Shown piece by piece: positions 1 through 41,187 of a DNA stretch of 42,970 nucleotides. Source of the stretch: Patescibacteria group bacterium. Lineage in GTDB: Bacteria; Patescibacteriota; Minisyncoccia; UBA6257; HR35. The DNA is taken from positions 1 to 42,970 of the forward strand of contig JBBTQG010000013.1 in the NCBI GenBank assembly GCA_038065795.1. Direction: 5' to 3'. The position numbers and the translations under genes are program-made. The notes under the pieces are model-generated. The model had not been told where the DNA came from, did not search any database, and worked only from the letters and a program-made list of their open reading frames with translations. Position 1 is the stretch's first letter. The number at the start of each line of letters is the position of its first letter.

Positions 1-93
1 AAGTTGACTATTTTATTACATGCGATTATGATTTAATCAAAAGATATAAGGGAGATTTAAAGGTTGTAGCCCTATTAAATTTTTTTCAAGAAT

Positions 94-300
94 ATGGCAA
101 TTATAAAAATAAATAAGAAACCACTTATTCAGACGGCGTTTGAGGTATTGTTGAAAAATTTAGGTCCAAGCAAAACTACAGAATTGTGGCAGGTATTTAC
201 TTTACCGCAAGACAATTATTTAACAGTTAGAAAAAAACTTTTTAACAATAAATCACTTCCTAGTGTTTGGAATGAAGCAAAAAAATTTAATAAAAAATAA
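94..300 (+). CDS. hypothetical small basic protein (68 aa)
   Basis: Complete ATG..TAA ORF in the track; Lys-rich; no motif I can name. Confidence 0.35.
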   Translation: MAIIKINKKPLIQTAFEVLLKNLGPSKTTELWQVFTLPQDNYLTVRKKLFNNKSLPSVWNEAKKFNKK

Positions 301-556: not shown

Positions 557-940
557 TTATTCTAATATCTCATTTAGGAATTTTTTGATGCCTGTGGTTG
601 ACATTGGGACAAGGTGGATATTTTTTACATTTTGAGACATTAGAAGTCCTGTGTTTTGTTTTTCTATCAATAAAATTTGAATATTAGGCGCTTGAAATTT
701 TTTTGCTAAACTCCAAAAATGCGCTCGTTCTTTTGGGGTTAATTTATTACTTTTTGTTTGCCAGAAAAGATATTTTTTCTTTGCAGGAAAAAAAGTTAAT
801 CCGTCAAAAAGCGCCCAAAAATCTTTGGGCATAAATCTAAGCATTGGTTTTAGCTCTGTCATACAACTTGGATAGCATTTTTTTAAAGTGTCTCTGAATA
901 ATTTTTCAAGTCTTTTACCCTTCCCAACTTTATTAACCAT
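557..940 (-). CDS. hypothetical protein (127 aa); weak PD-(D/E)xK-like pattern only
   Basis: Complete ORF; N-terminal GKGKRLEKLFRDTLKK, then D...FWQTK, loosely resembles Hjc/RecU-type nuclease cores; not diagnostic. Confidence 0.4.
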   Translation of the reverse strand: MVNKVGKGKRLEKLFRDTLKKCYPSCMTELKPMLRFMPKDFWALFDGLTFFPAKKKYLFWQTKSNKLTPKERAHFWSLAKKFQAPNIQILLIEKQNTGLLMSQNVKNIHLVPMSTTGIKKFLNEILE

Positions 941-962
941 AATTTCACGATATAATTATTAA

Positions 963-1628
963 ATGTCCGAAGAGGTAATTATAACAGAAAGTCCGCTTGA
1001 AATAATTTTTCAGTTGTTGGAGAAAAAGCACCTGGATTTTTCAAGTATTAGTTTGGTAAAAATAACAGACGATTTTTTGTATTATATTCAGGAAAAAAAT
1101 ATTGAAACAATTGCGGTTGGCGATTATTTGGAAGCTCTAAGTAAATTACTGCTTTTAAAAATTAATCACATTTTGAAAATAATTGAGCCAGAGCCTGAAA
1201 TAAGAATTAATCTTGAAAGATATAAATTTGTTAGACAGGCGAGAAATAAACTTAAAAATTTGTGGCTCGCTGGTCCTATTATTTTATCATCGCAAAAATT
1301 AACTTCAAAATTAATTTTTATCGCTCCGAAAATAACAATTAACGATTTAATGACTGGATTGAGTTTGTTAATGGAAGAACCAATAGTTGAAGAAAAGGAA
1401 ATTGTGTTGAAGAAAAAGATTCACATAAAAAATGCGCTGAAAATTTTGGAAGAGATTTTAAAAAAAGAAAAAGAAATTGTGCTTCAAGACACATTTAAAG
1501 AAAAAGGTTTTTTGATAGTGATATTTTTGGCGTCGCTTTTGCTTTATGGGGAACAAGCGATACAGATGGAACAAGAGAATATATTTGATAAAATAATAAT
1601 AAGGAGTAATCGCGAATATACGAATTAA
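963..1628 (+). CDS. scpA: segregation and condensation protein A
   Basis: ScpA-type N-terminus SPLEIIFQLLEKKHLDFSSISLVKITDDFLYYI; directly precedes scpB. Confidence 0.8.
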   Translation: MSEEVIITESPLEIIFQLLEKKHLDFSSISLVKITDDFLYYIQEKNIETIAVGDYLEALSKLLLLKINHILKIIEPEPEIRINLERYKFVRQARNKLKNLWLAGPIILSSQKLTSKLIFIAPKITINDLMTGLSLLMEEPIVEEKEIVLKKKIHIKNALKILEEILKKEKEIVLQDTFKEKGFLIVIFLASLLLYGEQAIQMEQENIFDKIIIRSNREYTN

Positions 1629-4262: not shown

Positions 4263-4274
4263 TATAAATTCATT

Positions 4275-5537
4275 ATGAAATCAGTAATTCAAACTCCGAG
4301 AGGTATGGTAGATTTGCTTCCTGAAAGCGCCGATTATTTTTTAGCGTTACAGGATGCGATTTTGAAATTGGCTAATTCGTATAATTTTCAATACATAAGA
4401 ACTCCTGTTATTGAAAATGAAAAAGTTTTTACTTCAAGTTTGGGCGAGTCGACTGATGTTGTTGAAAAAGAAATGTATTATTTAAAAGGTTCAGATAAAA
4501 GTGATAAGCTTGTTTTGCGACCAGAAGGAACAGCTGGGGTTATGAGAGCATATTTACAAAATGGGATGCATTCATGGAGCCAACCGGTAAAACTTTTTTA
4601 TATTGGGTCAATGTATAGAAGGGAAAGACCGCAGGCTTTAAGATTAAGAGAGCATTTTCAGTGGGGAGCTGAAATTTTGGGTTCAAAAGAACCGATTTGC
4701 GATGCTCAAGTAATGCAATTAATTGATGGCTTATTTAAAAAGTTTAAGCTTAAAGATTATATTTTTAAATTAAATAGTATTGGTTGCTTGGAGGATAGAA
4801 AAAAATATAAAAAAACTCTTTTGAGATATTACAAATCTTATATAAGAAAAGTCTGTGAAGATTGTAAGCGAAGATATAAAACAAATCCATTAAGGCTATT
4901 GGATTGCAAAAATGAAGTGTGCGTTGAAATTAAACAAAAAGCCCCGACACTTTTAAATCATTTGTGTAAGGAATGCGAATCTCATTTTGGAAAAGTTTTA
5001 GAATATCTTGATGATATGGGAATAACATATGAATTAGACGGAACACTTGTTAGGGGGTTTGATTATTATTCAAGAACGGTTTTTGAAGTGTTTTTTACTG
5101 AAAGAGCGACAGCTGTTGGCGGAGGAGGAAGATATGATTATCTTTCTAAAATGTTAGGAGGACAGGATGTGCCTGCTGTTGGAGTGGCGATTGGCATTGA
5201 AAGATTGATAGAGGTCGTTAAAATGCATCAGGTTAAATTATCTTATTTTAAGAAACCGCAAATATTTTTAGCGCAAGTTAGCGAAGAAGCAAAAAAAGAA
5301 GCCTTGAAGCTTTTTGAAATGCTTATTAAAAATAATCTTCCTGTAAGTGAAGCTTTTGCAAAATCAAGTTTGTCAAGTCAACTGGATTTGGCTGATAAAA
5401 TGGGAGTTAAGTTTACTTTAATAATGGGGCATAAAGAAGTTGGGCAGAAAAATGTGATTGTTAAACATATGCTCACAGGAGACCAGGAAACAATTCCAAC
5501 AGACCAGTTAGTGGAAGAGTTAAAGAGGAGACTATAA
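4275..5537 (+). CDS. hisS: histidine--tRNA ligase
   Basis: Class II HisS motifs LRPEGTAGVMRAY, FQWGAEILG, GGGGRYD; 420 aa. Confidence 0.95.
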   Translation: MKSVIQTPRGMVDLLPESADYFLALQDAILKLANSYNFQYIRTPVIENEKVFTSSLGESTDVVEKEMYYLKGSDKSDKLVLRPEGTAGVMRAYLQNGMHSWSQPVKLFYIGSMYRRERPQALRLREHFQWGAEILGSKEPICDAQVMQLIDGLFKKFKLKDYIFKLNSIGCLEDRKKYKKTLLRYYKSYIRKVCEDCKRRYKTNPLRLLDCKNEVCVEIKQKAPTLLNHLCKECESHFGKVLEYLDDMGITYELDGTLVRGFDYYSRTVFEVFFTERATAVGGGGRYDYLSKMLGGQDVPAVGVAIGIERLIEVVKMHQVKLSYFKKPQIFLAQVSEEAKKEALKLFEMLIKNNLPVSEAFAKSSLSSQLDLADKMGVKFTLIMGHKEVGQKNVIVKHMLTGDQETIPTDQLVEELKRRL

Positions 5538-34052: not shown

Positions 34053-37000
34053 ATGGATATTCTCTTTTGGAGAGGAACCAATCGTTCTGGTGTTTTTCAA
34101 TCTTTAGTCGTCGTATTAGCACTCTTAATTTTATTTTTGGTATTATTGCCCAAAATATACGCAAAAACAAATAGTAATTATCCTGTTGTATCGGGTTCTG
34201 ATGTAAGCGGAGGCGGAACAGGCGCTTCTTTTACTATCGCTGATATAGATGAATTGAATACTAGTGGTTCACCTCTTATAGAGAGCAAAAATAATTGGCC
34301 AAGTAGTAATCAATATGATGAATCGCGCTATTTAGAATTTGTTTTTTCTCCAAATATTCCTTCTTCTGCAATAATAAAAAATGTTTCTATTATTAATATT
34401 TATCAGCAAATCGACAAAGAAGGAGCAAAATTATCAAAAGCAAAATTAGAAATATTTAGCGGCAACACTCTTGTTAAAAGCAAGGAAATTTCTGTTGATG
34501 CAAATCAAAGCAAATTTGATGTATTAGAATTAAATACACCCGCATTAATCAATGGTTTAAAAATAAAATTTTTAGCGTATTCTGACGGCGTTTTAATAAA
34601 AACAAATTATGATTTTATTGGAGTAACCGTTGAATATCAGCTACCACTAGTTGTTAAAGATAAATCAATAACAACCAATGAAGATGTGGCTACAACTACA
34701 ATACTGACAATAACTGACCCGGAAATGAAACGCGATGGTTCAATAATTTATTCTACAACAACAAATCCATCAAACGGAATAATAACTCTCTCTGGCAACA
34801 AAATCACATACACGCCAAATAAAAATTACAATGGCACAGATTCATTAAAATTTAAAGCAAACGATGGTTCAATAGACAGCAACGAAGCAACAATATCAAT
34901 AACAATTAGCCCAGTAAATAATGCGCCAATATTACAAAATATAACCAGCACATCCACAAACGAACTCACGGAATTCAAATTCACAGCATCGTCAACAGAC
35001 CCTGACGGAGACGCCATAACATACTCATTAACTCCAACGACAACAGGCGCGGTAATAAACGCAAACACAGGCGAATTCAAATGGACGCCAACCGAAGAAC
35101 AAGGTCCAAGCACACACACATTCACAATCACAGTAAAAGACACATCAAACGCAACAACATCTCAATCATTCACAATCACAGTCAACGAAGTAAATTCTGC
35201 CCCAACTGTGCCAAATATAACCCTTGTAACTGATAAAAATATATCAACTACAACAACATTATTAGCAACAGATTCAGACATACCGGCAAACACAATAAAA
35301 TTCGCAACGACATCAAACCCATCAAACGGCACAGCAACTATATCTAATAACAAATTAACTTACACGCCAAACTTTAACTTCATAGGAACAGATATAATCA
35401 CATACAAAGCAAACGATGGAGCAACAAGCTCAAATATCGCAACGATAACCGTAACTGTGAACCAGAAGAATAACTCACCGGTATTACAAAATATAACCAG
35501 CACATCCACAAACGAACTCACGGAATTCAAATTCACAGCATCGTCAACAGACCCTGACGGAGACGCCATAACATACTCATTAACTCCAACGACAACAGGC
35601 GCGGTAATAAACGCAAACACAGGCGAATTCAAATGGACGCCAACCGAAGAACAAGGTCCAAGCACACACACATTCACAATCACAGTAAAAGACACATCAA
35701 ACGCAACAACATCTCAATCATTCACAATCACAGTCAACGAAGTAAATTCTGCCCCAACTGTGCCAAATATAACCCTTGTAACTGATAAAAATATATCAAC
35801 TACAACAACATTATTAGCAACAGATTCAGACATACCGGCAAACACAATAAAATTCGCAACGACATCAAACCCATCAAACGGCACAGCAACTATATCTAAT
35901 AACAAATTAACTTACACGCCAAACTTTAACTTCATAGGAACAGATATAATCACATACAAAGCAAACGATGGAGCAACAAGCTCAAATATCGCAACGATAA
36001 CCGTAACTGTGAACCAGAAGAATGTACCTCCTATAGCGCAAAATATAAACGCTACCACAAGCGAAGAAACATTTGTGGCAATAATACTTAAAGCAACTGA
36101 TTCAGATGTGCCAGCAGATATATTAACCTACTCACTAACTTCAAATCCATCGCACGGCATATTATCTTTAAATAATTCAACTACAATTTATACTCCAGAA
36201 ATAAATTATTATGGAACTGATTCATTTACTTATAAAGCAAATGATGGAACAGGGGATTCTAATATCGCAACAGTAACAATTACAATAAGTAATATTAATG
36301 ATGCGCCGACAACAAATAATAAATCTGTAAACGCAACAGTTGATAATTCTATTATTATAGCAGTACCTGTTTCTGATCCTGACCCAAATAACACATTCAC
36401 GACTTCCGTAGTAAATTCTCCTTCTTTGGGTTCAATTACAGCTATAAATGGGTTGAATATAACTTATAAGCCAACAGGACCAGTTGGAACAGATACATTT
36501 ACATTCAAAGTTAATGACGGAGAATTTGATAGCAATATTGCAACGACAACGGTAACCTTAACGCACGGAGCTACAACTCAAATTATAATTTCAGCTACTC
36601 CAACTATATTAGATGTCGGAAGTTCTAGCGTAATAATGGTTTCAGTTCGTGATAAATTTAATAACATCGTTTCAAGCGATAATTCATCACAAATTGAACT
36701 TCGAGCTGAAGCTGACCGCGCTGATAGAGAAGTTATAATGGATCCTTCATTGCTCACACTTTCAAATGGTATTGCGACAACAACAATAACAAAAAATTCA
36801 TCAGGAGATGTAAAAATAACAGCCGTAAAAGAAGGGTTCAAAAAAGTTCAAACAACAGTGTCATTTATAAAATTTAAAATAAAAAATATTAATCAAACAA
36901 AAATACACGCAAAAGGAGATGATACATATAAAAATGGGTGGCAATGGATTTTAGACATTACAGCTCCATTAAACGAAACGGGCTTATCTATGAAATTCAG

Positions 37001-37295
37001 TGATTGGTTTAATGGCACATCAATTATTCCTATAAGCAGTAATATGCAATTTTATTCTGCGCAATCGTCAAACGCATTTGATGAAAATACCTCTATCGGC
37101 ATATCATCTCCTAACACATATAGTAATATTATGATTCTTAATAAAGACATTGATCCGGCAACCATAGGAAGACAAATACAAATTTATGTTAACGCTAAAA
37201 TTCCAAAAGATAAAAAAGAATTAAGCGGAGAATTTTCTATTTTATATAAAATATTAACCGAAGAATTTTCAGTATTGAAAACATTATTGGAATGA
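34053..37295 (+). CDS. giant surface adhesin with tandem Ig/cadherin-like repeats (1080 aa)
   Basis: N-terminal signal anchor; repeated about 90-aa modules ending in (V/I)N(N/S/D)AP linkers (..YTPN.NY.GTDS..YKANDG..S N.ATITITV); DPDGDAITYSL..NANTGEFKWTP modules; C-terminal invasin-type Ig-like module. Confidence 0.8.
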   Translation: MDILFWRGTNRSGVFQSLVVVLALLILFLVLLPKIYAKTNSNYPVVSGSDVSGGGTGASFTIADIDELNTSGSPLIESKNNWPSSNQYDESRYLEFVFSPNIPSSAIIKNVSIINIYQQIDKEGAKLSKAKLEIFSGNTLVKSKEISVDANQSKFDVLELNTPALINGLKIKFLAYSDGVLIKTNYDFIGVTVEYQLPLVVKDKSITTNEDVATTTILTITDPEMKRDGSIIYSTTTNPSNGIITLSGNKITYTPNKNYNGTDSLKFKANDGSIDSNEATISITISPVNNAPILQNITSTSTNELTEFKFTASSTDPDGDAITYSLTPTTTGAVINANTGEFKWTPTEEQGPSTHTFTITVKDTSNATTSQSFTITVNEVNSAPTVPNITLVTDKNISTTTTLLATDSDIPANTIKFATTSNPSNGTATISNNKLTYTPNFNFIGTDIITYKANDGATSSNIATITVTVNQKNNSPVLQNITSTSTNELTEFKFTASSTDPDGDAITYSLTPTTTGAVINANTGEFKWTPTEEQGPSTHTFTITVKDTSNATTSQSFTITVNEVNSAPTVPNITLVTDKNISTTTTLLATDSDIPANTIKFATTSNPSNGTATISNNKLTYTPNFNFIGTDIITYKANDGATSSNIATITVTVNQKNVPPIAQNINATTSEETFVAIILKATDSDVPADILTYSLTSNPSHGILSLNNSTTIYTPEINYYGTDSFTYKANDGTGDSNIATVTITISNINDAPTTNNKSVNATVDNSIIIAVPVSDPDPNNTFTTSVVNSPSLGSITAINGLNITYKPTGPVGTDTFTFKVNDGEFDSNIATTTVTLTHGATTQIIISATPTILDVGSSSVIMVSVRDKFNNIVSSDNSSQIELRAEADRADREVIMDPSLLTLSNGIATTTITKNSSGDVKITAVKEGFKKVQTTVSFIKFKIKNINQTKIHAKGDDTYKNGWQWILDITAPLNETGLSMKFSDWFNGTSIIPISSNMQFYSAQSSNAFDENTSIGISSPNTYSNIMILNKDIDPATIGRQIQIYVNAKIPKDKKELSGEFSILYKILTEEFSVLKTLLE
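34931..36023 (+). repeat. 552-bp tandem duplication inside the adhesin gene; 541 bp identical in each copy (34931-35471 and 35483-36023)
   Basis: Compared base by base; encodes an identical two-module block of about 180 aa twice. Confidence 0.9.
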
Positions 37296-37933
37296 TAAGT
37301 GATAAGTTTTTGTTAATTATGTTTTTGTTTGGGGCATATATTTTGTATGGTTTTATATTTTTCGCGCGCGCTGAAGTAAATAATTTATCAGAACCAACAA
37401 GTGGAGTTTTTAAGGCTATTTTAATGGCAGAACCTAGTGTAAATCCAGAAGCAGGCGTTTATAGCTCAGCTCAAACTGCGACTTTTTTTCTTCCAAGCGG
37501 AGCCGAGAGAATAAAATATACAACAAACGGCACAGACCCAAGTTGCTCTAATGAAGAAAATATTTATACAAATCCAGTTCCTATAAGTTCATCATTAACA
37601 ATTAAGGCGGTTTCTTGTTATCCAGAAAATTATTCTTCGTCAATCGCGTCTTTTGTTTATACTATTAATATACCATCATCGGGCGGAGGTGGAGGAGGTG
37701 GTTATTATATTTATTCACCTACTCCGGTGGCGACAACAACACAAACATCGTCATCAGCAACAACAAGCTTATCGACTGATATAAACAAAGATAGCAAAAT
37801 TGATATTTTGGATTTTAATTTATTGATGGTAAATTGGGGAAATATAAATTCAGGGAATGTTGCTGATGTAAATAAAGATAACAAAGTCGATTTATTGGAC
37901 TTCAATATGCTTATGGTCTATTGGGCACAATAA
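37292..37933 (+). CDS. secreted dockerin-containing protein with chitobiase/hexosaminidase C-terminal-like domain
   Basis: N-terminal signal/TM; AGVYSSAQTATFFLPSGAERIKYTTNGTDPS...; Gly run and Thr/Ser linker; duplicated Ca-loop dockerin segments DINKDSKIDILDFNLLMVNW and DVNKDNKVDLLDFNMLMVYW; ATGA overlap with the adhesin gene. Confidence 0.7.
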   Translation: MISDKFLLIMFLFGAYILYGFIFFARAEVNNLSEPTSGVFKAILMAEPSVNPEAGVYSSAQTATFFLPSGAERIKYTTNGTDPSCSNEENIYTNPVPISSSLTIKAVSCYPENYSSSIASFVYTINIPSSGGGGGGGYYIYSPTPVATTTQTSSSATTSLSTDINKDSKIDILDFNLLMVNWGNINSGNVADVNKDNKVDLLDFNMLMVYWAQ

Positions 37934-37950
37934 TATTAAGTATCAAAATA

Positions 37951-38778
37951 ATGAAAAAAATAATAATATTATCAGTATCAGTAATAATCTTTTTAATAGT
38001 AATTTCTCCGTTGTATGCATCTTCTGTTTTTTTTTCGCCAAATATTATTTCGTTTCAAGAAAATAAAAATTTTAATGTAAATATTTCAATTGACCCGCAA
38101 AATATAAAAAATTACACGGTTAAATTAGAATTAAAATATCCAGCAGATTTGATTGAAGTTAAATCATTTACTATCGGAAATAATTGGATGCCGTTGATTC
38201 AATCTGGGTATGACGCAATAGATAATATGAATGGGGTGTTAATAAAAACAGGCGGTTATCCCGGCGGATTATCTAAATCTGCGTTGTTTGGAACAATTTT
38301 ATTTCATGCTAAAAAATCTGGGAATGGAATGATTCAAATTGGCGATAACTCGGCTTCACTTGACGCAAATAATCAAAATGTTTTAACAGGAACTCCGCAA
38401 ATAGGGGTAAATATTTTTTCAATAACCAAAAATGTTGAGCAAACTACAGAAGAAGAACAAGTTCGGCCTGACCAAGCTCAGGTTAATATAGATATATCCG
38501 GAGATGAATTTTTTCCAGAAACATCAGAAACATCAGAAAAACCAATAACTAAAAAAATAGATGAAGAAATAGCAACAACTACAACTCAATCTTTTAATCC
38601 AAAACCTTCGCAAAATAGTCTTTTGGCTTTTGCTGAAAAAATATTTAATACAAAAATAATTATTCCAATATACGCAATAATTTTTATAGTGATTGTTTTG
38701 TTTATCGTAATAAATATTAGAAAAAAGCAAAAACACAACAAAGAACAAAGAACAAAGAACTTAGAACTTAGAATTTGA
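37951..38778 (+). CDS. cohesin-domain protein with C-terminal membrane anchor
   Basis: Signal peptide MKKIIILSVSVIIFLIVISPLYA; cohesin-like pattern ISFQENKNFNVNISIDPQNIKNYTVKLELKYPADLIEVKSF...IDNMNGVLIKTGGYPGG...ILFHAKKSGNGMIQI; C-terminal TM IIPIYAIIFIVIVLFIVI plus basic tail; track ORF starts at TTG 37921. Confidence 0.65.
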   Translation: MKKIIILSVSVIIFLIVISPLYASSVFFSPNIISFQENKNFNVNISIDPQNIKNYTVKLELKYPADLIEVKSFTIGNNWMPLIQSGYDAIDNMNGVLIKTGGYPGGLSKSALFGTILFHAKKSGNGMIQIGDNSASLDANNQNVLTGTPQIGVNIFSITKNVEQTTEEEQVRPDQAQVNIDISGDEFFPETSETSEKPITKKIDEEIATTTTQSFNPKPSQNSLLAFAEKIFNTKIIIPIYAIIFIVIVLFIVINIRKKQKHNKEQRTKNLELRI

Positions 38779-39006: not shown

Positions 39007-41187
39007 ATGGGCAAAAAGCTCTTTATGCGCTTAAATTCTATTTCAAAATTCACACTTTTTTTGTTGGTGATTTTTTTAATCCCTACTTTTTTTGTTTTTG
39101 CTTCTGATACTGACGGAACAATTGATAATACAAATAAATACGCTTGGGGCAGTAAAATTGGCTGGGTGAATTTTGGAAACTCTAATGGAAATATACATAT
39201 CACAGATTCTCAATTAACTGGTTATGCATGGAGTTCAAATTATGGGTGGATTAATTTAAATCCTTCGCAAAGCGGCGTGAGAAACAATAATAACGGAAAT
39301 CTTTCTGAAAATGCTTGGGCGCAGAATTTAGGATGGATAGATTTTTCAAATGTAATAATTAATTCTTCCGGTCAATTTACAGGATATGCGTCAGGAACTG
39401 TTTCTGGCGTTATTAATTTTGATTGTTCAAATTGTGCCGTTTCAACAGATTGGCGACCATTAAGCGCAAGACCTTCTGCTGATACTGGGGCAGGAGGTGC
39501 TGGTGTGGTTTCAAGCGCTTATAAATATCCGGCGCCACCGTTCAGTATTTTAGTAAATAATGATGATGAATATTCTGTGAGCAATAAAGTAAATCTTAAA
39601 TTGTTCGCTGGGGTTGATGTTGAAAAAATCGCGATTTCAAATTATCTCGATTTTCGAGGAGCTATTCAAGAACCATATGTGTTAAATAAGGAATGGGATT
39701 TATGCACGGGTCGTCCGATTCAAACAGAATGCCCAAATGAAAAAACAACCTATTCTGTTTATGTGAAATTTTATACAAGATGGGGGAGAGAATCCGAAGT
39801 TTTTTCTGACAAAATTATTTTTACAAAAGAGATTGTAAAAAAACCAATAATACAACAAATAACTGAAAAAATCACTAAACCAATCACGAAGAAAGTTTAT
39901 GAAAAAATTCCTGAAATATTAAAACCATTTATACCTGAATTCTTAAAACCAAAGCCACCAGTAGTTTTGAAGCCCATTGAAGAGGTTGTTTTTAAAATAG
40001 CTCCTATTGCTATGAGGGGTAGATGGACTCTTGTTGACCCAAAAGCGTTAGAAAGACTTGTTTTCGCGCCATTGCCAAGAGAGTTAAGAGCTTTGACGCA
40101 AAAAGTACCGAGCTTATACAAAACTTTTTCTGAAGTTGGAGTCACAAGATTTTCTGAGCTTGAAAAAATAAAAACCGCAAAACTTATTTTGCCGGGACTT
40201 ACACAAAATCTTGGATTGCCGACAGTTAGAGTTGAAGCAGGGAAGATTGCAATTCCAGAAGGAATTCCGGTTGCAAAATTATCACAAGACCTTAAAAATA
40301 AAATACCAACCGAATATATTTTTGTAAAAACAGGAGGCGAGTTGATTGATTTTAATACAGTGTTAACACTTAATGAAAAAGGAAAGCCTCAGCAAAAAAT
40401 CGTTACTATCGTGGGTAAGCCGCTACAATTAGTTGTAAAACCAGACCAACCAGTTAAATCTGTAAAAGGATATGTTATTTTTAAGTCCAGAAAATTAGAA
40501 CCTGTTTCTTTTCGCATTCCATTTAAGGCTTTAAATAATTCGGCGCTTTTTGCAAACCCAATTTTTATTGGACCATTTGATAAATCAGTTGAAGTTGAGG
40601 AAAAACTTGTTTTAATGGAATTTGAATATACAGACCCTGACGGAGATGGAATTTATACCGCAGAAATTCCAGCGCCACTGGTTGAAGGCGAATATGAAAT
40701 CATTACTGTTATGGATTATGAAGACCCGTCGCTTGGAATGAAAGAAATTAAACTAATAACTGTTGTTGACCCAGAGGGCTATATATATGAAAAAGATGGA
40801 AATAAGGAAACCCGTATTCCTGGCGCTATTGCTTATATCTATTGGTTGAATCAAGAAACAAAACAATATGAATTATGGAATGCATCAAATTATCAACAAG
40901 AAAATCCACAAACAACAGATGTGAGAGGTGTATATTCATTTATAGTTCCTGAGGGTTTTTATTATTTAAAGGTCGAAGCTCCCGGGTACATGTCATATGA
41001 CGGCAAACCATTTGAAGTAAAAGAAGGAAGCGGAGTGCATATTAATATTGAAATGAAGACTAAGTATTGGTTTGTAAAAGTTGTTGATTGGAAATCATTG
41101 CTGTTAATTGTAATTATTATGATGTTGCTTTATAATTTTTACCGAGATAGGGTTAGGGAGAGGAAATTAATAAATGATAAAAAATAA
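39007..41187 (+). CDS. surface protein with N-terminal (Y)AWxxNxGW(I/V)(N/D)F repeats, Pro/Lys linker, carboxypeptidase-regulatory-like domain and C-terminal TM
   Basis: Signal peptide; repeats YAWGSKIGWVNF, YAWSSNYGWINL, NAWAQNLGWIDF; PEGYIYEKDGNKETRIPGA...VRGVYSFIVPEGFYYLKVEAPGY; TM LLLIVIIMMLLYNF. Confidence 0.65.
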   Translation: MGKKLFMRLNSISKFTLFLLVIFLIPTFFVFASDTDGTIDNTNKYAWGSKIGWVNFGNSNGNIHITDSQLTGYAWSSNYGWINLNPSQSGVRNNNNGNLSENAWAQNLGWIDFSNVIINSSGQFTGYASGTVSGVINFDCSNCAVSTDWRPLSARPSADTGAGGAGVVSSAYKYPAPPFSILVNNDDEYSVSNKVNLKLFAGVDVEKIAISNYLDFRGAIQEPYVLNKEWDLCTGRPIQTECPNEKTTYSVYVKFYTRWGRESEVFSDKIIFTKEIVKKPIIQQITEKITKPITKKVYEKIPEILKPFIPEFLKPKPPVVLKPIEEVVFKIAPIAMRGRWTLVDPKALERLVFAPLPRELRALTQKVPSLYKTFSEVGVTRFSELEKIKTAKLILPGLTQNLGLPTVRVEAGKIAIPEGIPVAKLSQDLKNKIPTEYIFVKTGGELIDFNTVLTLNEKGKPQQKIVTIVGKPLQLVVKPDQPVKSVKGYVIFKSRKLEPVSFRIPFKALNNSALFANPIFIGPFDKSVEVEEKLVLMEFEYTDPDGDGIYTAEIPAPLVEGEYEIITVMDYEDPSLGMKEIKLITVVDPEGYIYEKDGNKETRIPGAIAYIYWLNQETKQYELWNASNYQQENPQTTDVRGVYSFIVPEGFYYLKVEAPGYMSYDGKPFEVKEGSGVHINIEMKTKYWFVKVVDWKSLLLIVIIMMLLYNFYRDRVRERKLINDKK

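Follow-up and report, generated by a model that had tools for sequence, protein, structure and literature searches.

A dockerin protein encoded beside a membrane-anchored cohesin-fold protein in Patescibacteria: a probable non-cellulosomal pair for surface tethering

The DNA analysed here (the window) is the whole of contig JBBTQG010000013.1 (positions 1 to 42,970; 42,970 nucleotides, nt) from the assembly GCA_038065795.1 of a Patescibacteria group bacterium, and the subject of this work is a pair of neighbouring genes in it, encoding a protein that ends in a dockerin and a membrane-anchored protein of cohesin fold, respectively. The assembly comprises 581 kilobases (kb) in 56 contigs, of which the window is one, and is rated 99.6% complete; the relatives of the proteins of the window come almost exclusively from Patescibacteria. 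Three tightly packed genes on the same strand encode a repeat protein of 1080 amino acids (aa), the 213-aa dockerin protein and the 275-aa cohesin protein, respectively (Table 1). An initial annotation of the window had placed the two open reading frames (ORFs, 37292..37933 and 37921/37951..38778) and an overlap of the dockerin gene start with the stop codon of the upstream adhesin gene, and all of them were read at these positions, with the ATG of the dockerin gene at 37292-37294 and the TGA of the adhesin gene at 37293-37295 sharing an ATGA (37292-37295). It had also considered ATG 37951 as the start of the cohesin gene, which holds; the spacer between the stop codon ending at 37933 and ATG 37951 is 17 nt. 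The upstream protein, described there as a giant adhesin, is large rather than giant at 1080 aa. The G+C content across the three-gene region (~31-36%) is like that of the remainder of the window, and a promoter and terminator scan gave the same counts as shuffled controls.

The dockerin module was identified with the Pfam model Dockerin_1 (PF00404), which matched residues 162-209 of the whole 213-aa protein with 28.1 bits (expectation value, E, 2.3e-6; curated cut-off 22.9), the C-terminal 67 aa alone with 36.6 bits (E 5.4e-9) and, in a six-frame search of the 581-kb genome, this single dockerin with 29.3 bits. In a type I dockerin, each of two repeats of ~22 residues is made up of an EF-hand-like Ca loop of 12 residues, with ligands at positions 1, 3, 5, 9 and 12, and a helix after it. 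In the protein of the window, each repeat has a complete Ca loop of the form D-x-N-x-D-x3-D-x2-D followed by a helix DFN-x-LM-x-x-W, and the Ca ligands as read from the sequence are D163-N165-D167-D171-D174 and D192-N194-D196-D200-D203, respectively. The two dockerin-type Ca-binding segments that had been recognized at the end of this protein are thus borne out by a score above the curated cut-off and by two complete loops. Upstream of them, CHB_HEX_C_1 (PF13290/PF13287 pair with Fn3_assoc) matched residues 52-116 with 38.2 bits (E 1.4e-9; cut-off 22) and Fn3_assoc matched with 32.4 bits (cut-off 23), this module being the sole copy in the genome. The model obtained by AlphaFold from 14 homologues has a beta-sandwich at residues 49-125 (predicted local distance difference test, pLDDT, 80-93), disorder at 132-158, and helices at 172-180 and 201-211, where the dockerin helices belong. 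When the whole model was searched by Foldseek, only generic immunoglobulin (Ig)-like sandwiches were found, with E >1e-3, and a carbohydrate-binding role is therefore without support. Of the earlier description of this part of the protein, the CHB_HEX_C-like domain and the Gly/Thr/Ser linker between it and the dockerin (residues 129-162) stand, and the carbohydrate-binding type of the module is without support. Homologues of 200-225 aa from other metagenomes have the same three-part architecture. Among the small dockerin proteins compared (P0047-P0053, L057 1999-2655 and L055 848-1498), the predicted mature N-terminus (A)SE(V/I/T)TG-x-L/I-x-TG is kept across proteins with differing Ig-like and Fn3-like modules, and the dockerin protein of the window departs from it (AEVNNLSEPTSG).

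For the cohesin protein, the signal peptide, acidic/Thr linker, C-terminal transmembrane (TM) helix and basic tail which the initial annotation had listed were all present. The AlphaFold model, made from the alignment of homologues, is disordered at ~165-229 and helical at 237-274. Its confident part (residues 24-160) can be superimposed on solved cohesins, which are beta-sandwiches of the nine-stranded jelly-roll type. When the model was compared with the PDB by Foldseek, the first 35 matches were all cohesins, with a TM-score of 0.74-0.79 on the target; they include CohA2 of Clostridium acetobutylicum (6kgd, E 8.9e-9, TM-score 0.74), the cohesin-like modules of C. perfringens (2jh2 and 2vo8, TM-score 0.76-0.79), Coh1 of C. 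cellulolyticum, OlpC and OlpA of C. thermocellum and the non-cellulosomal 2xdh of Archaeoglobus fulgidus. Lower matches are sandwiches other than cohesins, with the CLIPPER domain (9ifr) and YcnI (7me6) among them. The protein has 44 homologues (E 1e-21 to 1e-51), some with a precomputed match to the Pfam Cohesin model (PF00963) and some named 'cohesin domain-containing protein' by NCBI. When 41 homologues, which are 30-46% identical, were scanned with PF00963, 17 matched at E<=0.01 (best 2.2e-8). The identity of the module as a cohesin is thus supported by family members and by predicted fold rather than by a direct profile match. Among 1.84 billion representatives, the family comprises 587 clusters (50% identity) at E<=1e-30 and 3291 such clusters at E<=1e-3, with nearly all members 230-280 aa in length. 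Two other sets of matches were rejected: weak PDB profile matches of the family to the Ig-like N-terminus of phage tail protein V (E ~0.01), and Pfam and NCBIfam matches on the protein itself, which were spurious and due to low complexity or the TM segment, e.g. RIFIN. All homologues begin with MKK, and ATG 37951 is therefore taken as the start, not TTG 37921. The latter is a pseudo-start at -13 nt, overlapping the dockerin gene by 13 nt, and recurs in 11 related loci as a systematic trap for gene callers; it arises where an Asn/Tyr-Trp codon pair kept in the last helix of the dockerin (AAT or TAT, then TGG) yields a TTG in another frame.

Table 1. Features of the three-gene region and its neighbour, with further copies of domain X in related loci.
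Feature	Position (nt)	Residues	Strand	Basis
Secreted repeat adhesin, 1080 aa	34053..37295		+	ORF, Pfam, NCBIfam
Domain X, C-terminal ~155 aa of adhesin	36801..37283	917-1077	+	BLASTP/hidden Markov model (HMM)
Dockerin protein, 213 aa	37292..37933		+	ORF, Pfam, AlphaFold
Signal peptide of dockerin protein (predicted site ARA/E)		1-27	+	Sequence; N-terminal helix in AlphaFold model
Ig-like CHB_HEX_C/Fn3_assoc module of dockerin protein		52-123	+	Pfam, AlphaFold
Gly7 + Thr/Ser linker of dockerin protein		129-162	+	Sequence
Dockerin module, two 20-residue repeats with a 9-residue linker between	37778..37924	163-211	+	Pfam Dockerin_1
Dockerin repeat 1, DINKDSKIDILDFNLLMVNW	37778-37837	163-182	+	
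Dockerin repeat 2, DVNKDNKVDLLDFNMLMVYW	37865-37924	192-211	+	
Membrane-anchored cohesin protein, 275 aa	37951..38778		+	ORF, AlphaFold, Foldseek, homologues
Signal peptide of cohesin protein (predicted site LYA/S)		1-23	+	
Cohesin-fold beta-sandwich, ~137 aa	38020-38430	24-160	+	AlphaFold pLDDT mostly >90
E/T-rich disordered stalk of cohesin protein		~161-233	+	11 E, 10 T in 74 residues
TM helix of cohesin protein	38650-38718	234-256	+	
Basic tail of cohesin protein, RKKQKHNKEQRTK		257-275	+	
Surface protein, 726 aa, own C-terminal TM helix	39007..41187		+	ORF; weak Pfam CarboxypepD_reg
Domain X, L042	2708-3181			
Domain X, L047	3795-4256			
Domain X, L040	4820-5275			
Domain X, L035	4438-4908			
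Domain X, L031	5577-6005			
Domain X, L050	2286-2771			
Domain X, L057 (G241:C21)	4267-4767			
Domain X, L056 (G256:C14)	794-1192			

The analysis of gene order drew on 44 genome loci with a gene for a relative of the cohesin protein and on three metagenome contigs; upstream DNA was available for 44 loci, and a script was used to look for a co-oriented ORF ending beside the cohesin start. The cassette is defined here as a dockerin-ended gene directly upstream of a co-oriented gene for a protein of ~230-280 aa with signal peptide, cohesin, linker and TM helix. A dockerin-ended gene was found directly upstream of the cohesin gene in 43 of the 44 loci, its end lying between -13 and +51 nt relative to the start of the cohesin gene. 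The C-terminal double dockerin repeat was seen by the script at once in 40 of the 44, and on inspection a dockerin was also present in L033 and in L032 and L036, in which the junction is masked by N; L045 is the only locus without a dockerin beside the cohesin. Dockerin_1 matched 40 of 41 C-terminal segments (the one of the window and those of 40 loci), with a best E of 6.9e-11, and the locus of the window fits the same order of dockerin then cohesin. The remaining, non-dockerin parts of these proteins (referred to as the cargo) are unrelated to one another across the loci. Among the large cargo proteins are an S8 subtilase of 1807 aa, which also has Ig-like repeats, and a beta-helix protein of 1294 aa, and small ones carry Ig-like families (Big_2/3/4/5, SpaA_2, MBG and HYR), with CHB_HEX_C in four. 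Since the pairing is kept through this turnover of cargo, a direct functional tie is the best explanation, and the proposal that the two neighbours are cohesin-dockerin partners is strongly, though indirectly, supported by the conserved adjacency. No description of the cassette in Patescibacteria was found in the literature searched, including that on the candidate phyla radiation, Parcubacteria and Saccharibacteria.

In this genome, the dockerin and the cohesin of this family are each present once: the family profile found one copy, and no second cohesin was detected in the whole genome by this profile and PF00963. These counts therefore indicate a dedicated 1:1 pair and not a cellulosome. 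A miniature cellulosome displaying polysaccharide-degrading enzymes would agree with the setting from which cohesin-dockerin pairs are best known and with the CHB_HEX_C module, which is typical of chitobiases and hexosaminidases according to its Pfam description; such an assembly is nevertheless extremely improbable here, as the only dockerin protein of the genome carries no catalytic domain, the single cohesin goes with neither a scaffoldin nor a carbohydrate-binding module, and the small cargo across the family is made of Ig-like modules, not glycoside hydrolases. The non-cellulosomal nature of the pair, which the initial annotation had put forward, is in keeping with both the genome-wide counts and the lack of an enzyme on the cargo.

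An even sample of 401 Patescibacteria genomes was also searched. The cohesin profile matched 49 genomes, six of them at E<1e-30, and Dockerin_1 matched 138, in most of which there are one or two copies. Of the 49, at least 19 have a co-oriented dockerin match no more than 1.3 kb upstream of the cohesin match (among the 150 of 285 dockerin matches that were listed), and the order of dockerin then cohesin is therefore taken to be general in the phylum. The same order extends to cohesin subfamilies that are further removed, tandem cohesin pairs being found in some of them. Three members of the cassette set are filed under other phyla, namely L029 (Candidatus Zapsychrus, an Omnitrophota metagenome-assembled genome, MAG), L030 (a Gammaproteobacteria MAG) and L021 (a Planctomycetota MAG), all on contigs of 2.5-6.4 kb; they are probably binning errors, not transfers.

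For the comparison of dockerin classes, the dockerins from 39 loci were aligned. Two classes of signature were distinguished, DFN-x-LM(V/I) and DFV-x-LMA, the latter being found in 8 loci, with the change present in both repeats in 7 of the 8. The cohesins of these 8 loci group together in a single, well-supported clade (97/93). The dockerin class is followed most closely by the cohesin columns T56 (to A/V), in the third strand of the cohesin model (residues 53-57), and N143 (to S/T), in the strand-8 region (residues 135-143), and columns of the last strand (residues 150-156) track it as well. In type I complexes, the dockerin binds to the 8-3-6-5 sheet of the cohesin, which includes strands 3 and 8. 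A dual binding mode is known for the type I dockerins of C. thermocellum and C. cellulolyticum, and 2vn5 and 2vn6 are among the fold matches of the cohesin model. Because the two repeats differ so little and change together across the family, a dual mode, in which either dockerin helix engages the cohesin, is probable for the present dockerins. The DFN and DFV signatures may mark specificity classes that are naturally orthogonal.

These data also bear on the explanation that both modules are real and have different partners, the dockerin binding elsewhere (to a host-cell or surface ligand or to another protein) and the cohesin-like sandwich binding something else, so that the adjacency would come from a shared operon of surface proteins. 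To our knowledge, many non-cellulosomal dockerins are without a known partner, which counts for such an explanation, as do the excess of genomes with a Pfam dockerin (138 of 401) over those with the cohesin profile (49) and the presence in L045 of a cohesin with no dockerin beside it. The dockerin-domain protein SEML1_0315 of Southlakia epibionticum, which is essential, is a further point in its favour: it is the nearest item found in the literature, but the gene table of that paper shows nothing cohesin-like beside its gene, and it is for that reason not the same arrangement as that described here (PMC10633639). With the adjacency of 43/44 maintained despite complete turnover of the cargo, the 1:1 copy number in this genome, and the dockerin signature and cohesin clade switching together, separate partners are considered unlikely.

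The two genes are thus likely to encode a dedicated non-cellulosomal cohesin-dockerin pair of a Parcubacteria/Paceibacteria-like bacterium, by which a secreted Ig-like protein is tethered to the cell surface. The cohesin protein would be exported and anchored in the cytoplasmic membrane through its C-terminal helix, the basic tail lying on the cytoplasmic side, and would present its one cohesin beta-sandwich outside on a flexible acidic/Thr-rich stalk of ~70 residues. The dockerin protein would be secreted via Sec with cleavage of its signal peptide, and its two-repeat, presumably Ca-dependent dockerin would in the Ca-loaded state plug non-covalently into the neighbouring membrane cohesin, thereby tethering the Ig-like (CHB_HEX_C) module to the cell surface. 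Across the family, the arrangement would act as a two-gene cassette with interchangeable dockerin cargo, comprising Ig-like modules, beta-helix proteins, a subtilase and long repeat adhesins.

Several observations weigh against this interpretation. PF00963 gave no match on the cohesin protein, even at E<=1, nor anywhere in the genome in all six frames, and no cohesin was found when the PDB was searched with the sequence profile of the family; the cohesin assignment of the initial annotation therefore stands by virtue of the family (17/41) and the fold (top 35), by which alone the failed direct search of this sequence, an outcome that the initial annotation had itself named as counting against the assignment, is overridden. 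In a PDB search with the dockerin profile, calmodulin EF-hands (E ~1e-5) dominated and one true dockerin was found, that of C. perfringens (2jnk/2ozn); calmodulin and this one solved dockerin score much alike. The co-variation of dockerin signatures and cohesin columns is inseparable from shared descent, because it is confined to one clade and amounts to a single event; it is compatible with a partnership and is neither proof of it nor independent evidence. The hydrophobic N-termini of 19 residues could be uncleaved anchors, in which case the complex would form in the plane of the membrane and no secreted protein would be tethered. Finally, the link of the upstream adhesin to the cassette, plausible as it is, comes from gene order alone.

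The profile results accord with the view that there is no plug and socket at all, the dockerin being a structural EF-hand Ca tail and the cohesin a generic Ig-like or jelly-roll spacer. The match of the dockerin profile to calmodulin, the failure of Pfam Cohesin on this protein, and CLIPPER (9ifr) and YcnI (7me6) among the lower fold matches are all in line with it. Against these stand a Dockerin_1 score above the curated cut-off, a repeat spacing that is dockerin-like and not calmodulin-like, and 35 cohesins ahead of any other sandwich in the fold search, and the strict gene pairing would be left unexplained; we regard this view as quite improbable and retain the reading as a dedicated tethering pair.

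The gene upstream of the pair encodes an adhesin with seven Big_9/cadherin-like repeats (Big_9 1.9e-86; Cadherin_4/5), two He_PIG domains and the NCBIfam tandem-95 repeat. No dockerin, C-terminal TM helix or sortase/sorting signal was found in its sequence, and no sortase was found in the genome. In most of the related loci with a small cargo protein (130-510 aa), the gene ahead of it, at a distance of -4 to 79 nt, encodes a protein of 530 to >2000 aa, and cargo proteins of >1000 aa have a dockerin of their own and no large upstream neighbour; this size distribution of cargo and upstream proteins is a fusion/fission pattern. The C-terminal part of the adhesin, termed domain X, has the motif TF-x-NGW-x-W-x-F-x-IT-x-P...QIQ...GSYST-x-YGI-x-SE and gave no credible sequence match in Pfam or the PDB. 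A diverged cohesin was considered for it and rejected (hhalign probability 0.4%). By BLASTP and HMM searches, domain X was also found in large proteins encoded upstream of the pair elsewhere, in an N-terminal position in all five of L042, L031, L047, L040 and L035 and in a C-terminal one in L050, the remaining domains of these proteins being completely different between loci. Apart from G256, every copy found is in a large surface protein whose gene immediately precedes a cassette with a small dockerin protein. It is present as a single copy in the genome of the window, and proteins with domain X stand beside the cassette in about eight genomes. In the sample of 401 genomes, domain X occurs in 4; it lies directly upstream of a small dockerin protein and a cohesin in G000, G283 (= L050) and G241, and in G256 it is followed by a small protein with signal peptide, repeats, Gly-rich linker and a TM helix of its own, and then by a sortase-like gene. 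In G256 the tether seems to consist of a single piece. All four cargo proteins of the CHB_HEX_C type (window, L040, L042 and L047) are encoded behind a domain-X protein. The coupling of the pair to the adhesin gene, which had been part of the initial annotation, thus gains some support from domain X beside the cassette and from the size pattern.

On the basis of this gene order, the small dockerin protein might be an adaptor that holds the 1080-aa adhesin through domain X, which is put forward tentatively and with more doubt than the tethering of the Ig-like module. A three-part relay without sortase could then be drawn, running from domain X of the adhesin to the small Ig-like protein and from its dockerin into the membrane cohesin; as a whole, this relay is somewhat doubtful. 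Its contact with domain X might be made by the Ig-like module or by the conserved mature N-terminus SE(V/I)TG, and the small protein would serve as an adaptor scaffoldin for non-enzyme cargo. Elsewhere the relay would be shortened, either by fusion of the dockerin to the large protein or, as in G256, by fusion of the small protein to a TM helix.

Downstream, a gap of 228 nt separates the end of the cohesin gene (38778) from the gene for a 726-aa surface protein (starting at 39007), which possibly has its own transcript. By tblastn, the N-terminal aromatic-repeat module of this protein (residues 30-157) shares 61% identity with the N-terminal portion of the dockerin-borne cargo in L044 and 43% with the cargo in L030, and residues 175-281 match parts of L028 and L038. 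The protein is a thematic neighbour, and its membership in the pair is without support. A module that is TM-anchored here and dockerin-anchored elsewhere fits the dockerin-cohesin joint as one of several interchangeable anchors.

Among known systems, the pair would be classed by module identity as a type-I-like cohesin-dockerin pair and would work most like OlpA/OlpC of C. thermocellum (3ul4 and 4dh2), in which one surface-anchored cohesin captures a type-I-like, two-repeat Ca dockerin; OlpA/OlpC cohesins take Foldseek ranks 6, 9 and 19 for the cohesin model. They differ in being anchored to the wall by S-layer homology (SLH) domains, whereas a C-terminal TM helix is found here, and in serving many dockerin enzymes from among dozens of dockerins, whereas here there is one dockerin, on a non-enzyme encoded by the adjacent gene. 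The glycosidase toxins of C. perfringens (FIVAR-Doc; 2jh2, 2vo8, 2w1n and 2ozn/2jnk) are alike in using cohesin and dockerin for purposes other than cellulose, and they provide both the best TM-scores (0.76-0.79) and the sole solved dockerin found by the profile. Their modules, however, are carried on large secreted enzymes and link enzymes together, whereas the cohesin described here has a small membrane protein to itself and pairs with an Ig-like cargo protein, as proposed above. The module of A. fulgidus (2xdh, Foldseek rank 23) is likewise a cohesin fold without a cellulosome, but its architecture differs. Cohesin- and dockerin-like modules outside cellulosome producers were reportedly surveyed by Peer et al. 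in 2009, before the genomes of Patescibacteria were available, and we know of no conserved two-gene cassette among the A. fulgidus cohesin and the wider non-cellulosomal modules.

Since modules of this kind are well known, the finding is of value for the variant itself and for how widely it occurs rather than for any new principle. The main additions are the adjacency of 43/44 with turnover of the cargo, the 1:1 copy number, the two putative specificity classes and domain X as a candidate third element. Domain X may be a further docking module and, if the relay is true, would be a novel, Patescibacteria-specific module for docking between proteins, and pairs of the DFN and DFV classes, if orthogonal, could serve as protein-assembly tags. 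For the ultra-small, host-dependent Patescibacteria, whose surface adhesins presumably mediate attachment to host cells, the pair would offer a concrete and easily tested mechanism for the anchoring of such adhesins, in which a TM helix takes the role of SLH domains or sortase and the non-enzyme cargo is interchangeable.

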